Virus record (IMG/VR): IMGVR_UViG_2740892442_000009
Reading direction: 5' to 3' (one strand)
DNA length: 5,775 nt
Source of the DNA: a virus
Taxonomy: Duplodnaviria > Heunggongvirae > Uroviricota > Caudoviricetes
The translations under genes and the position numbers were made by a program. Numbering within the stretch: the stretch's first letter is position 1; every line of letters begins with the position of its first letter. Shown one piece after another: positions 1 through 5,215 of this stretch. A model generated the notes under the pieces. That model was given only the letters and a program-made list of their open reading frames with translations. It was not told the origin of the DNA and did not search any database.

Positions 1-1590
1 CCAGGCATTACAGGTGATGCGCGGCTCCGTGCCGCCAAAGCCGTCCGGCACCGACTGGTCGCAGTACTGGCCGATGACATACAGCGCCCATTTATCCACA
101 TCCGACGCACCAAGACGTTTTCCCATGCCGTAGCGCGGATGGGTCAGCATATCCCACAGACACCAGGCCATGTTGTTGCTGTATGCTGGCTTAAACGTTC
201 CGTCCCAGATACCGCTGTATTGTCGCGTCTGCGGGTTATAGTTCGACGGCACCTGCAGAATGCGCCCGCGAAGATGATAATTACGACTCACCTGCTGGCT
301 GCCGAACTGCTCCGAGTCCACCTGTACGCCGACCAGTGCCGTGTTCGGGTAGCACTGTTTCACATCGATGATTTCGGTGTATGACGACCAGAGCGTTTTG
401 TTCTGCAGCTGGTCTGTGGTGCTGTCCGGCGTCATCCTGCGCATCCGGATATTAAACGGGCGCGGCGGCAGGTTATCCACCACCACCGAGGCCAGATACT
501 GCGAGGTGGTTTTGCCTTTAATGGTGATGTCTTTTTCCGTCACCCAGCCACCGTTACGCTGTATCTGAACCAGCAGGCGGACTTCCGACGGATTCCGGTC
601 CCCCTTTGAGGTGGTTTCCACCAGTGCCTGCACACCGAAGGTAAAGCGCAGACGGTCGATGTTTGCAGACGTGATGGTCCGGGTAATCGGCGTGTCGTAC
701 TTCACTTCCGTACCCAGCACCGTCTCGGAGCCGGAGGATTCAAATCCCTCCGGCGGTGTCTGCTCCTGCTCACCGGCCCGGAACACCACCGTGACACCGG
801 AGATATTGGTATTCCCCTCCCCGCCATGCATGATCTCCACCATGCGCTGCGTCATTCGGACAAATCCATTTTCAATAGCCTGCTGATAATCAATGATCAC
901 CAGCGCCGACTCCTCGAAAAGGCACTGAATTTCAGCGGGGGCATGAGCGTAATAGTCCGCAATTCTGCTGAAATTAAACACCGTGTGACGTTCTGCCGCA
1001 CACAGGAGGAATTTCTCAATATCAGGATCAAGGGACGCCGAACGTATCCGGCTGATCAGCTCCTGAGTTTTCGTATCGTCGTACAGTTCACTGATATCCG
1101 GTTTACCGCCCGACGGCTCATAAACAGGCGTATCAATTTTCGTCGTATACGGCTCCTCCTTATTTCCTATACCGGGCAAAACATCCGTCAACAGTTCATC
1201 AATTTCTGTCGGGCCGAAGCCTGTCAGGGAGACATCAAAATCAGCATTGATTAGGACCGACAGCTCCATCCGCAACAGATCTTCATCCCAGCCAGCATTC
1301 ATCGGTAGGCGATTATCTGCCAAGCGGTACGCCTTTTTCTGCTCATCCGTCAGGCCAGACAGAACAATGACCGGAACAGAATCCATTTTGAGCATTTCAG
1401 CCGCCATAACACGACCGTGACCCGCAATAATTTCGCCCTTTTCGTCAATCAGCACCGGATTAGTCCAGCCGAATTGCTTAATACTTTCTACCAGTTGTGC
1501 CACCTGCTCAGTACTGTGCGTCCTGGCGTTGTGCGCATACGGTGACAATTCTTGTAATGGGCGATAGACTATCTTTAATTTCTCGCTCAT
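1..1590 (-). CDS. Chimeric ORF (5' end complete, 3' end runs off the window): ParB-like N-terminal nuclease-domain protein fused in frame to lambda J-like tail tip / host-specificity protein
   Basis: ATG at 1590..1588 (minus) with a weak SD (AAGG, 1598..1595). I translated the minus strand by hand and found an uninterrupted frame of 530 codons to position 1. The N-terminus (MSEKLKIVYRPLQELSPYAHNARTHSTEQVAQLVESIKQFGWTNPVLIDEKGEIIAGHGRVMAAEMLKMDSVPVIVLSGLTDEQKKAYRLADNRL...) has the hallmarks of the ParB N-terminal domain, followed by a WDEDLL...TGFGPTEIDELL linker seen in phage ParB-domain proteins. From about codon 258 (EGNTNISGVTVVFRAGEQEQTPPEGFESSGSETVLGTEVKYDTPITRTITSANIDRLRFTFGVQALVETTSKGDRNPSEVRLLVQIQRNGGWVTEK...) it matches my recollection of phage lambda J from roughly residue 55 onward. 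The six plus-strand ORFs in the track at 139-1254 are antisense to this frame. Confidence 0.8.
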   Translation of the reverse strand, partial: MSEKLKIVYRPLQELSPYAHNARTHSTEQVAQLVESIKQFGWTNPVLIDEKGEIIAGHGRVMAAEMLKMDSVPVIVLSGLTDEQKKAYRLADNRLPMNAGWDEDLLRMELSVLINADFDVSLTGFGPTEIDELLTDVLPGIGNKEEPYTTKIDTPVYEPSGGKPDISELYDDTKTQELISRIRSASLDPDIEKFLLCAAERHTVFNFSRIADYYAHAPAEIQCLFEESALVIIDYQQAIENGFVRMTQRMVEIMHGGEGNTNISGVTVVFRAGEQEQTPPEGFESSGSETVLGTEVKYDTPITRTITSANIDRLRFTFGVQALVETTSKGDRNPSEVRLLVQIQRNGGWVTEKDITIKGKTTSQYLASVVVDNLPPRPFNIRMRRMTPDSTTDQLQNKTLWSSYTEIIDVKQCYPNTALVGVQVDSEQFGSQQVSRNYHLRGRILQVPSNYNPQTRQYSGIWDGTFKPAYSNNMAWCLWDMLTHPRYGMGKRLGASDVDKWALYVIGQYCDQSVPDGFGGTEPRITCNAW

Positions 1591-1602
1591 ACAGCCTTGC
1601 TT

Positions 1603-1644
1603 TATGAATAAAACGCACCCCAGCAGCCAGTGCTACTGGGGGCG
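1603..1644 (-). terminator. Rho-independent terminator downstream of trkG
   Basis: On the minus strand: CGCCCCCAGTAGC / ACTG loop / GCTGCTGGGGTGCG (about 13 bp of GC-rich stem with one bulged base), immediately followed by TTTTATTCAT. The plus strand has no T-tract after the hairpin, so it is unidirectional for the minus strand. Confidence 0.6.
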
Positions 1645-1727: not shown

Positions 1728-3184
1728 TTAGGAGCGCCAAAAAAAAACTGAAAACAATATAATAACAGGATAAATTTCAAGGCGACCAAGAATCATAGCT
1801 ATGCACATTAAATATTTTGCAATGTCATTAAGCACTCCGAATGACGATGCAGTAGCCCCAAAACCTAATCCCATATTATTAATACATGCAGCCACTGTTG
1901 CAAATGATGTAAGAAAATCATATCCCATACCATTTAACACCAGTATAAAAAACACCGTGAAGAGAGTATAAAGAAAAAAGAAACTCCATACAGACCTCAT
2001 TACACGATCTGTAACTATCTTCCCTCCTACATTTACACTCAACAACGCTCTGGGATGAGAAAGCTGATTTATCTCGTGTTTGCTTTGTTTGAAAAGTATA
2101 AGAAATCGAAGTGACTTAATTCCACCACAAGTTGAACCTATACATCCCCCAAAGAAACTTGACAACAGCAAAAACACTATCGTGTGCGTGGGCCAGTTTG
2201 CATAATCTTGCGTAGCTAAACCATTATCAGTGAGCATGGAGCTGGCAAGAAAAAACGAATGAATAAAACTTCCATGCAAGTCATACATACCTATATGCCA
2301 GACCTGGAAAGAGGTAACAATGATCACCACTAAGGCTATTAACAGAAAGAAACGAAGTTCAATATCTCTGATTAAAGGTTTTATCGTTTTTCTGCTAATA
2401 ACAATATACCAAAGAGTAAAGTTGAAAGCCGATAGCAGGGAAAAAGCACCAGCCACCAGCTCAACCAAATAGTTATTAAAATATCCGATACTCTCGCTAT
2501 GAGTTGAGAAACCACCAAGCGAAACTGTGGAAATCCCGTGACAAATAGCATCAAACAAAGGCATTCCTGCAAGTCTATAACAGACAATACAAGCAATACC
2601 TAATAAAGAATAAGTTATCCACAGTGTCCGTGACGTATCGGCCAGGCGGGGAGTGAGTTTGTCATCCTTAAATGGCCCCGGCATTTCTGACTGATAAAGC
2701 TTTGCACCACCAATACCCAATAATGGCAATACTGCAACCGCCAGAACAATAACTCCTAAACCACCTATAAAATTTAACTGTGACCGATAGTACAAATATG
2801 CCCGAGGTAATGAACTAACATCATCAATTACAGTTGCTCCTGTTGTTGTTATTCCAGAAACCCCTTCAAACAGAGCATCAATGAACGTTAAATTAAGTTC
2901 TGAGTCAATCCATAAAGGGAATGCACTAATAACAGAAAACAAAATCCAAAACATTACAATTATAATAAACCCATCACGGTACGTAATTGAATGCCAGATT
3001 TCTTAGTTGTATACCACGCTCCGCCACCAATGCAAAAAAATATAACGAAAGTTATAAAGAAAACGAACAGGCTTTTTTCTTTATAAAACAATGCTACAAC
3101 CATTGGTGGCAACATTGAAAGACTATAGAGCCAAACCAGGAACCCACACATATGAGTAACAACTCTTACATGAGATGTATTCAT
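1728..3184 (-). pseudogene. trkG: TrkG/TrkH-family potassium uptake protein, disrupted by a 1-bp frameshift (prophage moron)
   Basis: Two same-strand ORFs in different frames. ATG at 3184..3182 gives MNTSHVRVVTHMCGFLVWLYSLSMLPPMVVALFYKEKSLFVFFITFVIFFCIGGGAWYTTKKSGIQLRT and then terminates (VMGLL*, stop at 2962..2960); the track's TTG start at 3202 is 6 codons upstream. The second frame (408 aa, 1728..2954) is open upstream of its ATG and reads RDGFIIIV-MFWILFSVISAFPLW..., continuing the same multi-pass membrane protein. Joining the pieces gives 69 + 8 + 408 = 485 aa, the length I recall for E. coli TrkG. One base appears to be missing from a G-run at plus 2978-2979 (ACGGT where ACGGGT would restore the frame). 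The region is markedly AT-rich relative to its flanks. Confidence 0.8.
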
Positions 3185-3201
3185 ATCTAAATATTCTTTC
3201 A

Positions 3202-3321: not shown

Positions 3322-3786
3322 TTACTTTAAACACTGTTCGGTTATGTATTGCTGAGCACCTTCAAGTTGGGCCTGCATCATTACCAGTCGTTCCCGGAGG
3401 GTGAAATAATCCCGTTCAGCGGTGTCTGCCAGTCTGGGGGAGACTGCATTATCCACGCTGGAGGTGGCGGTGGCTTCACGCACTGACTGACAGACTGCTT
3501 TGATGCGCAACCGACGACGACCAGCGGCAACATCATCACGCAGAGCATCATTTTCAGCTTTCGCATCAGCTAACTCCTTCAGGTATTTTGCATCGAGTGC
3601 AGCAACATCACGCTGGCGTATCTGCATGTCAGTAATGATTGCGGTCGCCTGGTTGAGTTTTTCCGTCACATTATCGCGTTGCGCTTTGTAGGTAATGGCA
3701 TTATCACGGTAATGATTAACAGCCCATGACAGGCAGACGATGATGCAGATAACCAGAGCATAAATAATCACGGCAACTCTGCTCAC
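3322..3786 (-). CDS. Rz: Rz i-spanin (inner-membrane spanin subunit)
   Basis: The translation (…[37 protein letters not shown]…[90 protein letters not shown]) closely resembles lambda Rz: N-terminal TM helix followed by coiled-coil. I place the start at GTG 3786..3784, which overlaps the endolysin TGA stop (GTGA), mirroring the ATGA coupling in lambda and giving 154 aa. The track's start at 3801 is a TTG. Confidence 0.8.
3381..3566 (-). CDS. Rz1: Rz1 o-spanin (outer-membrane lipoprotein), fully embedded in Rz in the +1 frame
   Basis: ATG at 3566..3564 preceded by a strong SD (AAGGAG, 7-nt spacer). The product [61 protein letters not shown] has a lipoprotein signal with a lipobox Cys and a proline-rich mature part, and is near-identical in pattern to lambda Rz1. 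Confidence 0.85.
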
Positions 3787-4316
3787 TGCTCTATCCCCCA
3801 ACAGGCTAATGCGCTCTCCTGATCACGACGAATAACCTGACCGTAACAGTTATTTGAACGAAGGCGGCAATCGCGCCCCCTGTCCTTAATCCACCAGCGA
3901 ATCGCCTCGCAGGCACCTTTACGATCACCTGCATTCAGCCGCTTATAAAATGTCGACGGAAAACACTTAGCGGGGCCAATGTTATAGGGACAAAATGACG
4001 CGATACCCGCTTTTTGTGGTTCGGTCAGTGTTACTTTAATATTGCGATCCACCCATGCCAGCGCCTTATCACGCTCAATGGCATTAACCTGATCGCATTT
4101 TTCCTTCGTCAGCCTCATTCCCGGTATGACGGGCTTACCATCCACCATTGTGGCACCACGACAGATGGTCCATATACCGGAACCATCGCGGTATGCCGTT
4201 GTGTGGTTACCTTCTTTTTCATCCAGAAACTGGTCGAGAATATCAGGCGCAGGCGCACCGACGGCAATCAGTGCCAGAACGGCAGCCGACAGGCCGTATC
4301 TGATTTTTGCGTTCAT
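3783..4316 (-). CDS. R: Phage endolysin, GH24 (T4-lysozyme-like) with N-terminal signal-anchor-release (SAR) domain
   Basis: 177 aa. N-terminal weakly hydrophobic Gly/Ala-rich segment ([18 protein letters not shown]) typical of a SAR domain. Catalytic E-x8-D-x5-T triad present ([16 protein letters not shown]). It resembles the 177-aa R lysozymes of Stx-type lambdoid phages as I recall them. No canonical SD upstream of the ATG (…GATAAATATCCATG). Confidence 0.9.
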
Positions 4317-4421: not shown

Positions 4422-4694
4422 ATGGACAATAGCACCATTTCTCTACAGGAGTTGCTCGACTGCATTTCCAGGCTTCGGGATGATGTAAATGCCCTTACTG
4501 TCGCATTTTCATATCTGGCATTCTCAATTCCCAAGGAACAAATGCAACCAACACTGGCATCGCTCCAGCTTGAATCACTCAACCCCAAATGGTCCCAGCA
4601 ACAACAAAATTCTTTCAAGTGGCTGGCGGTATTACTGGAAGAAAAATATGCTGGTGAAATTACCATTTCGGCGGAGTCTTCAGTGAACCAGTAA
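4422..4694 (+). CDS. Hypothetical 90-aa protein, the only plus-strand gene candidate; convergent with and overlapping the 114-aa ORF
   Basis: ATG at 4422 preceded by a strong SD (AGAGAGG at 4408-4414, 7-nt spacer). The translation is protein-like, helical and acidic (MDNSTISLQELLDCISRLRDDVNALTVAFSYLAFSIPKEQ…) with no signal peptide or TM segment. A TTGAAT / TACAAT pair lies upstream but with poor spacing. I do not recognise the family. Confidence 0.45.
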   Translation: MDNSTISLQELLDCISRLRDDVNALTVAFSYLAFSIPKEQMQPTLASLQLESLNPKWSQQQQNSFKWLAVLLEEKYAGEITISAESSVNQ

Positions 4695-5004
4695 TTCTTC
4701 CCGGCAGTTTTCCTTTGTAGGTTATCCGCACACCCTGCGCCTCTAAAATTATGGGGCGCTTTTCCGGTGACTGCTCATCCCCTTCACATAACCCGGCAGC
4801 AACATCCAGGAAGACCTGTCTGATGCTTCTTCTGGCTGCTGCCTCATAAAACTCCAGCGCGGCACCTTCAACACGGTCCAGCGAGATGTCCAGGTCTAAA
4901 ATTTCACCGTCAAAGCGTTTTTTGTCCCGTAACGCTAAAGTTACCGTAACTTTATTCTCAAAATTGCGGATCCCTTTCACAATCAGTTCATAGTTTTGAG
5001 TCAT
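4660..5004 (-). CDS. Hypothetical 114-aa phage protein between holin and endolysin (position analogous to ydfR in the Qin prophage; family unverified)
   Basis: ATG at 5004..5002, four nucleotides after the holin TAA stop (5011..5009), with a strong SD (GGGGAGAG) inside the holin 3' end, indicating translational coupling. Soluble, charged protein (MTQNYELIVKGIRNFENKVTVTLALRDKKRFDGEILDLDISLDRVEGAALEFYEAAARRSIRQ…). Confidence 0.65.
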   Translation of the reverse strand: MTQNYELIVKGIRNFENKVTVTLALRDKKRFDGEILDLDISLDRVEGAALEFYEAAARRSIRQVFLDVAAGLCEGDEQSPEKRPIILEAQGVRITYKGKLPGRITGSLKTPPKW

Positions 5005-5008
5005 TGAA

Positions 5009-5215
5009 TTACTCTCCCCGTGCAGCCTTACGCTTATCTTCTTTAATCTTGAAATAAAGATTTGTCAGATACGTCAACAGGCCAAACACCAGACTACCCA
5101 GCACACCTATTGCTGCCCACTGTGAGGGCGTGACTCTATCGAGCAACTGTAAAAACCAGTAGCCAGCACTGCCTGCGGAGGTGCCATAGGCGACACCTGT
5201 TGTTAACTTATCCAT
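5009..5215 (-). CDS. S: Class II holin, phage-21 S-like pinholin
   Basis: 68 aa ([68 protein letters not shown]) with two TM segments and a charged C-terminal tail. It is near-identical in pattern to the phage 21 S68 pinholin as I recall it, and pinholins partner with SAR endolysins like the one present here. Confidence 0.9.

Follow-up and report, generated by a model that had tools for sequence, protein, structure and literature searches.

Here we describe a gene fusion, and the breakpoint that underlies it, in a stretch of 5,775 nucleotides (the window) from the IMG/VR virus record IMGVR_UViG_2740892442_000009. A ParB-like gene runs in one open reading frame (ORF) into the gene for a lambda-type tail tip protein J. 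The ORF starts at an ATG at 1590 on the minus strand and remains open up to the left end of the window, a span of 530 codons (Table 1). On the same strand it is preceded, in order, by the holin gene essD, a YdfR-family gene, lysozyme, Rz/Rz1, the trkG moron and an intrinsic terminator. Escherichia coli TUM10008 (NZ_CP135658.1) carries the same DNA: positions 1–1800 are 100% identical, and over the full 5775 bases the difference is one missing base. The annotated TUM10008 locus (L001) has Rac-type synteny (kil-sieB-ydaF…ydaT-ydaU-ydaV, lysis genes, trkG, ynaK) and is collinear with the Rac-like phage L005, and the window holds the late genes of a degraded lambdoid prophage of Rac type. The TUM10008 copy of the fusion is annotated as an intact "phage attachment tail tip protein J" (gpJ, WP_241380650.1), a RefSeq label for a 1339-aa chimera that can mislead predictions of prophage completeness and host range.

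The two halves of the ORF are readily told apart. Residues 1–257 match PHROG 620, "ParB-like partition protein" (2.4e-88, over residues 1–250), and share 97% identity with the separate 263-aa ParB protein of induced Rac-like phages; against Pfam ParB_N (PF02195) the fusion ORF scores 26.0 bits, with a cut-off of 26.3. From residue 258 onward it aligns with lambda J (PDB 8iyk_J), residues 56–328 of which fall within the window (E = 1e-185). All six J Pfam domains follow in order, namely FNIII-A, Phage-tail_3, Ig_J, Ig_J_second, Phage_Tail_Tip and Ig_GpJ_C (E 5e-25 to 3e-43). Like lambda J (PDB 8IYK and related structures), the chimera therefore has every J domain through the C-terminal receptor-binding domain, but it lacks J residues 1–55, carries 257 foreign N-terminal residues and has no partner tail genes. 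The native J N-terminus (1–55) with the preceding genes K and I was not found here; the upstream DNA is ParB and not gene I. The reference ParB protein is 263 aa long and ends in …HGGEEEYA before its stop codon. The chimera continues into J after …HGG(E), with the ParB stop codon gone, and the ParB part loses just its last ~6 codons (the …EE(E)YA tail). Elsewhere, late genes of the PHROG 620 ParB/Srx-domain type are intact between the lysis genes or trkG and terS, and are followed by a PF20691 gene (TAGT/GREB1-like glycosyltransferase); the ParB part of the chimera has lost this neighbor along with its stop codon and final codons.

By BLAST against six related loci, ParB homology ends at window position 816 and J homology starts at 819, with GAGG shared. 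The in-frame join reads …ATG CAT GGC GGG GAG GGG AAT ACC…, and the peptide spanning it is …EIMHGGEGNTNISGVTVVFR. At the nucleotide level, the ParB side is 97.5–98.7% identical up to 816 to loci with a full-length ParB (phages L004 and L005, prophages L002 and L003), and the J side is 97–98% identical from 819. A first-pass annotation made from the letters alone had this ORF beginning as a ParB-like protein and continuing as lambda-type J, which the searches bear out. It had set the switch at codons 257–258 (positions ~817–826), with J from about residue 55, within a few bases of the boundary found here (816–819, J residue 56).

Between ParB codon 257 and J codon 56, the intact Rac-like phage L005 has 17,587 bp that the window lacks; on the coordinates of phage vB_EcoS-683R6 this loss brings 20779 next to 38367. 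The gene order of intact vB_EcoS-613R10 and vB_EcoS-683R6 is trkG, the same terminator, ParB (263 aa), a TAGT/GREB1-like gene, a small ORF, terS, terL, portal, coat genes, tail genes, ydaY, tape measure, M, L, K, I and J. Since these packaging, head and tail genes are present in intact phages and absent from the window, the comparison supports a deletion, and the large internal loss and the in-frame chimeric ORF proposed at first pass both hold. It had been allowed at that stage that the N-terminal 257 residues might be normal in some J proteins, or that intact relatives might have no structural genes between the two loci. Instead, ParB is a separate gene in intact phages, so the N-terminal part is no natural piece of a J protein, and terminase through I lie in between. 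The fusion is the in-frame product of a 17.6-kb deletion, an event of ordinary prophage decay.

The exact junction occurs in one of 5426 complete genomes (TUM10008), the identical fusion protein is found on 25 contigs in a large protein collection, and the same junction is present in IMG/VR contig L141 and metagenome contig L149. It is therefore not an assembly artefact, and the ParB::J fusion is, by its sequence distribution, a lineage allele. The 4020-nt ORF of L149 is fully open and differs from TUM10008 by eight substitutions, six of them synonymous and all within codons 609–670 (184 nt), which looks like one gene-conversion patch from another J allele.

The Rac prophage of K-12 (trkG-ynaK-ydaY-ynaA(tmpR)) belongs to the same prophage family, has the same order of trkG, terminator and ParB-like gene, and has likewise lost its packaging and head genes through a deletion beginning inside the ParB-like gene. 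In K-12, however, ynaK breaks off at codon ~85 and abuts ydaY, a remnant of a tail chaperone, with J absent and no ParB::J fusion. The suggestion that K-12 might hold the same junction in separate frames is thus not borne out. The 263-codon ParB/Srx-like partner in the deletion is the full-length form of K-12 ynaK. A stepwise origin from the K-12 arrangement was also rejected: the K-12 junction differs, and the arrangement in strain Z142-3 is a 56-bp island between two deletions, the second of which ends at the same J position as in the window. Taken together, the junctions of the window, Z142-3 and the enterotoxigenic E. coli (ETEC) O6:H16 strains show three distinct left ends meeting J at one base (Table 1).

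Table 1. Features of the window, and ends of other Rac-type deletions on the vB_EcoS-683R6 scale.
Feature	Position	Strand	Remarks
Chimeric ParB::J ORF	1..1590	minus	partial in window; full 4020 nt (1339 aa) in TUM10008
ParB/Srx-like (ynaK family) part	820..1590	minus	codons 1-257 of 263-codon gene
Lambda-type tip attachment protein J part	1..815	minus	lambda J residues 57-328, including FNIII-A domain
Deletion junction, microhomology GAGG	816..819	minus	common to ParB 3' (GAG)n tract and J codons 56-57
GA dinucleotide, putative crossover core	818-819	minus	common to nearly all junctions at J55
Second recurrent breakpoint (HS2), J residue ~212	345..352	minus	intact in window; coordinates read from sequence
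Shine-Dalgarno-like AAGG	1595..1598	minus	4 nt 5' of ATG; read from sequence
Predicted intrinsic terminator of trkG	1608..1641	minus	10-bp stem, 7 GC pairs, 4-nt loop, T-run
trkG moron, upstream of fusion	1728..3185	minus	frameshifted in window; GG at 2978-2979 vs GGG in TUM10008 and K-12
Rz	3322-3801	minus	
Rz1-like lipoprotein ORF	3381-3566		embedded in Rz
Lysozyme	3783-4316	minus	
90-aa ORF	4422-4694	plus	convergent
YdfR-family gene	4660-5004	minus	
essD holin	5009-5215	minus	
Other Rac decay, ET729	left 20852; right 38502		right end further inside J
Other Rac decay, PSJ-23	left 21480; right 37949		right end in gene I
Other Rac decay, Z142-3	left 20920; right 38366		56-bp island (32391-32446) after left end
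Other Rac decay, ETEC O6:H16 strains	left 20438; right 38367		left end mid-ParB

The J-side breakpoint, …CAGT GA/GGGGAAT… (a slash marks the break), is hereafter called J55. At least 13 other left partners and two right partners meet J at exactly this nucleotide, in at least 15 independent deletions in other prophages of Rac, lambda and DLP12 type from unrelated strains. The J55 junctions all read as partner sequence …GA/GGGGAATACCAA…. Junction DNA was obtained for 12 left partners besides that of the window; RusA is known from protein only. Partners in complete genomes include lysozyme (BA92), terL at codon ~99 (ES2) and tape measure (Z1323CEC0012), with a second tape-measure site in DLP12-type prophages (BE2-5 and others). 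A protein search with 271 aa spanning the junction returned in-frame fusions exactly at /EGNTNISG to the S49 prohead protease (two sites), L, capsid E, Rac coat, RusA and mid-ParB, five of which were confirmed in DNA. Among the matches listed, 7 of the 10 distinct N-terminal fusion points fall at J55 and the other three at J3, J39 and J93. This query detects junctions upstream of J55 equally well, and by our own calculation such a coincidence has a probability of about 1e-13 under a uniform spread over ~280 nt.

J55 also serves as the retained left end in two cases (L132 and L171), both ending …CAGTGA/. The joint reads …CAGTGA/AACG in ETEC4075, an internal J deletion, and …CAGTGA/TCGG in IMG/VR contig L171, where J codon 55 is joined inside sitA. 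A native GA is present at the crossover in the window's own partner and in 13 of the 14 others, the exception being the S49-b site. Because S49-b has no GA, the GA there comes from J, and the J end is GAGGGG…. All copies of the right-hand 30-mer in IMG/VR are preceded by GA, and the GA is kept on whichever side of J55 is retained. These junctions show J55 as a nucleotide-precise hotspot (…CAGT GA/GGGGAATACC…) where many independent deletions in different prophage types begin or end. The first-pass reading of a large internal deletion was right, but the J-side end is no chance position. No description of a J breakpoint hotspot was found among the titles and abstracts listed by searches of open-access literature.

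A second hotspot, HS2, lies 470 bp downstream of J55 (HS1). At least 10 right-hand partners, among the matches listed, are joined after J "…IIDVKQCY/" (DNA …AAACAGTGCTA/CC…), including Lom (two sites), Tfa, Stf, distal J and a primase. The same endpoint is seen in a J family of 80% identity and in an allele reading ACAGGG. The query spanned the J55–J212 segment, which limits the visible events to those that keep it but does not explain the exact coincidence of endpoints. The lom gene has a reused right-hand endpoint of its own (…RY/EFTDTLG), joined to two J left ends, QCY and RQY (P0035, P0019, P0104), so recurrent endpoints may extend beyond J.

The 3' end of the ParB-like gene (window 816–835) is a variable (GAG)n or poly-Glu tract, ending in …HGGEEEYA or …HGGEEEEEYA. 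In other strains this tract is found fused to no fewer than five further unrelated sequences (P0122, P0126, P0128, P0129, P0132), and the left end of the window junction is thus also deletion-prone.

An illegitimate deletion removed the 17.6 kb, with ParB codon 257/258 joined to J codon 56 via GAGG. We propose that the J DNA may be broken or exchanged at …CAGT^GA^GGGG… with a 2-nt GA overlap, and the broken J end would then be joined to its partner through minimal microhomology. A sequence-specific nuclease or nickase could act here, as could a recombinase with a 2-bp core; fork run-off is another candidate. The reading as a whole, that of a degraded Rac-type prophage with a probably inert in-frame deletion fusion whose J end is a recurrent hotspot with a GA-overlap break, is in our judgment highly probable. 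The chimera itself is an ordinary scar of prophage decay, and the recurrent J breakpoint is the part deserving attention. The usual picture of prophage decay is one of random deletions on which selection then acts; should a defined activity cause the J breakpoints, it would be a directed route to disabling lambdoid prophages. It is conceivable, though we would not expect it, that an unrecognised DNA-breaking or strand-exchanging activity at J codon 55/56 (…CAGT GA/GGGGAAT…) and ~212 (…CAGTGCTA/CC…) drives the inactivation and domestication of lambdoid prophages, maybe as a weapon between phages or between phage and host, with ParB::J as one of its scars.

Several observations weigh against the proposed break at J55. 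Tests of a CRISPR spacer, IS30, a hairpin, a homology boundary and a Pin site have none of them accounted for the hotspot. No convincing motif is common to J55 and J~212, a point against any single, simple sequence-specific enzyme. Ascertainment was uneven, as several J55 junctions surfaced from queries beginning at J55. For the window junction alone, a plain microhomology-mediated deletion is indistinguishable from a site-directed break, the ParB (GAG)n tract being junction-prone. As to inertness, an ORF open over 4 kb in independent samples could reflect either recent origin or selection.

In one alternative, no special agent acts and ordinary replication slippage or a microhomology deletion between the ParB (GAG)n tract and J GAGGGG produced the junction, the apparent hotspot being a matter of ascertainment. 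The 4 nt of microhomology at the window junction, the many other junctions in the ParB 3' tract, the J55 cases drawn from queries that start there, and the other Rac deletions ending elsewhere (ET729, PSJ-23, and K-12 at ydaY) all agree with it. We consider it improbable nonetheless: the clustering of 7 of 10 listed fusion points on one codon boundary is hard to reach by chance, the microhomology is mostly just GA, two events use J55 as a retained left end, and J55 has neither a notable hairpin nor a homology boundary. In another alternative the junction was made by a conservative site-specific recombinase with a 2-bp core, the candidate being a Pin/Gin-type serine invertase from these same prophages that acts on J55 as a quasi-site together with partner pseudo-sites that have a GA core. 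Int- or Cin-promoted recombination at secondary sites gives one fixed endpoint and one variable end, joined with minimal homology if any. In related loci (L003 4286–4311; L008) a true pix/gix-type site has the core TC/GA, the GA native to nearly all partners and kept on both sides supplies the identical 2-bp core, and 12 of 24 half-site positions agree at J55, a score within the top 2.4% for GA sites of the late region. Yet ~40 other GA sites score as high as J55, and the partners match only 2–10 of 24 positions against two 12-bp half-sites resembling TTNNCNNAAACC, the same as random GA sites. Moreover, S49-b lacks GA, HS2 has no GA/TC core, and two quasi-sites would need to recombine without a true site, which makes an invertase an unlikely agent.

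Deletions adjacent to insertion sequences (IS) offer another precedent for an end fixed to the nucleotide. IEE-associated deletions run from a few bases to >40 kb next to excised IS3, IS1 and IS30 family elements, the IEE PrimPol carries out microhomology end joining with 2–6 nt, and IEE is reported in >30% of E. coli assemblies (PMC9943667). As at J55, one endpoint of these deletions is fixed, the other varies, and the joint shows minimal homology or none (PMC9943667). A former IS at J55 with a 2-bp duplication could thus have been excised by transposase and IEE, with one flank kept and the other resected before microhomology end joining, and the GA on both flanks does resemble a 2-bp target duplication. 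However, J55 differs from these fixed-end deletions, and from those made by recombinases, in having no element or true recombination site at the endpoint. An IS30 insertion at J55 was rejected, as no IS30–J55 joint occurs in 5426 complete genomes; the J half of the query seeds this search whatever IS30 end sequence is used. Pattern scans of IMG/VR and JGI metagenomes likewise gave no IS end of any kind beside J55, and the right flanks in IMG/VR are preceded only by GA, with no IS end before it. In IMG/VR the IUPAC patterns VGA/, B/GGGG and HA/GGGG, like RGA/ in JGI metagenomes and in GTDB representatives, gave only single-nucleotide polymorphism (SNP) alleles and known junction types; the pattern …CAGTGAH gave SNP alleles and one previously unseen junction, the sitA joint of L171. 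No IS-bearing J55 allele or other trace of one was found, and a progenitor allele behind at least 15 events across several families of prophage ought still to be seen. We therefore give a vanished IS little credence.

Other candidates were tried and set aside. For self-targeting by a type I-F CRISPR system, the 32 nt upstream of the J55 GG form a well-placed protospacer, but there is no matching spacer in either orientation; CRISPR arrays in the 5426 genomes gave no repeat-spacer-repeat match above ~86% identity. Hairpin-stalled slippage was rejected, as the folds at both hotspots are unremarkable (z scores −0.3 to −1.4). HS1 forms no more than a weak 7-bp stem closing a 30-nt loop, and HS2 a 6-bp stem. 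Neither hotspot lies at the boundary of a conserved block, there being no step in nucleotide diversity at either across 125 distinct J alleles. By eye, the ends of the J55–J212 segment have no shared terminal inverted repeats as would be expected of a mobile element. A common motif also fails: ACAGTG precedes both sites at unequal distances, and HS2 works in the ACAGGG allele too. Chi sites, EcoP15I, Eco57I, other type IIS/III spacings, a cos-like sequence and the gyrase consensus show no fit by eye. A DLP12-type prophage with a J55 junction (BE2-5; L210 2576–3064) carries a gene for a 163-aa GIY-YIG family nuclease between its lysis genes and a terminase remnant; from its sequence family, this nuclease is a possible candidate for a J-cutting activity.

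The fusion ORF is preceded by the trkG terminator, which has the sequence features of a rho-independent terminator. Its stem spans 1641–1618 and its T-run (tail TGCGTTTTAT) ends at ~1608, 17 nt before the ATG. The first-pass annotation had placed such a terminator just ahead of the ORF, correctly except for the spacing, which it gave as ~14 nt. It had also concluded that so short a gap leaves read-through as the only route of expression. The gap, however, is native to intact phages, where ParB follows the trkG moron inside the late operon, and was not made by the deletion; dependence on read-through is still plausible. A homologue of the Q antiterminator was not found in 25.8 kb around the gene by tblastn with a single Q type, that of the intact Rac-like phage L005, and low expression of the chimera by read-through is therefore plausible.

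The chimera is most likely a functionless remnant, to judge from its gene context. It is probably inert because there are no other head or tail-shaft genes, J residues 1–55 are missing, and transcription would come only from read-through. The opposite view is that it is a selected functional protein, such as a ParB-domain-tagged J fragment acting in exclusion or as a tailocin-like part. Its ORF is open over 4020 nt in both TUM10008 and L149, six of the eight differences are synonymous, the allele is on 25 contigs, and a Shine-Dalgarno-like site is present. The differences are clustered as in one gene-conversion patch, though, and carry little information on selection, while many sister J55 junctions are out of frame or truncated. 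With the partner tail genes K, I, L, M and H absent and terminator read-through the only visible transcription route, we regard a selected function as very improbable, and continue to favor an inert product of prophage decay.

The ParB-like gene of intact Rac-like phages shares an overlap with a 310-aa Pfam TAGT gene (PF20691; NCBI "GREB1-related") just 5' of terS (L004 18785–19717; L137 2447–3379). In distant phages the ParB homologue also adjoins genes annotated as glucosyltransferases. The ParB-like and TAGT pair may be a DNA-modification module rather than having a partition function. Several J fragments in public assemblies (P0001–P0006, P0046, P0055) contain internal tandem duplications of 10–100 residues in the FNIII-A region, pointing to frequent template switching there. 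At the other end of the TUM10008 prophage, sitABCD directly adjoins the tail-fibre end (L001 1670–5119).

The trkG gene upstream of the fusion is split by its frameshift (context …ACGTACC-GTGATGGG…) into ORFs of 80 aa and 408 aa. The GG may be genuine, marking a frameshifted sister isolate, or may be a sequencing error in the homopolymer. The lysis cassette beyond it is complete, with the Rz1-like ORF embedded in Rz and a 90-aa ORF on the opposite strand (Table 1).

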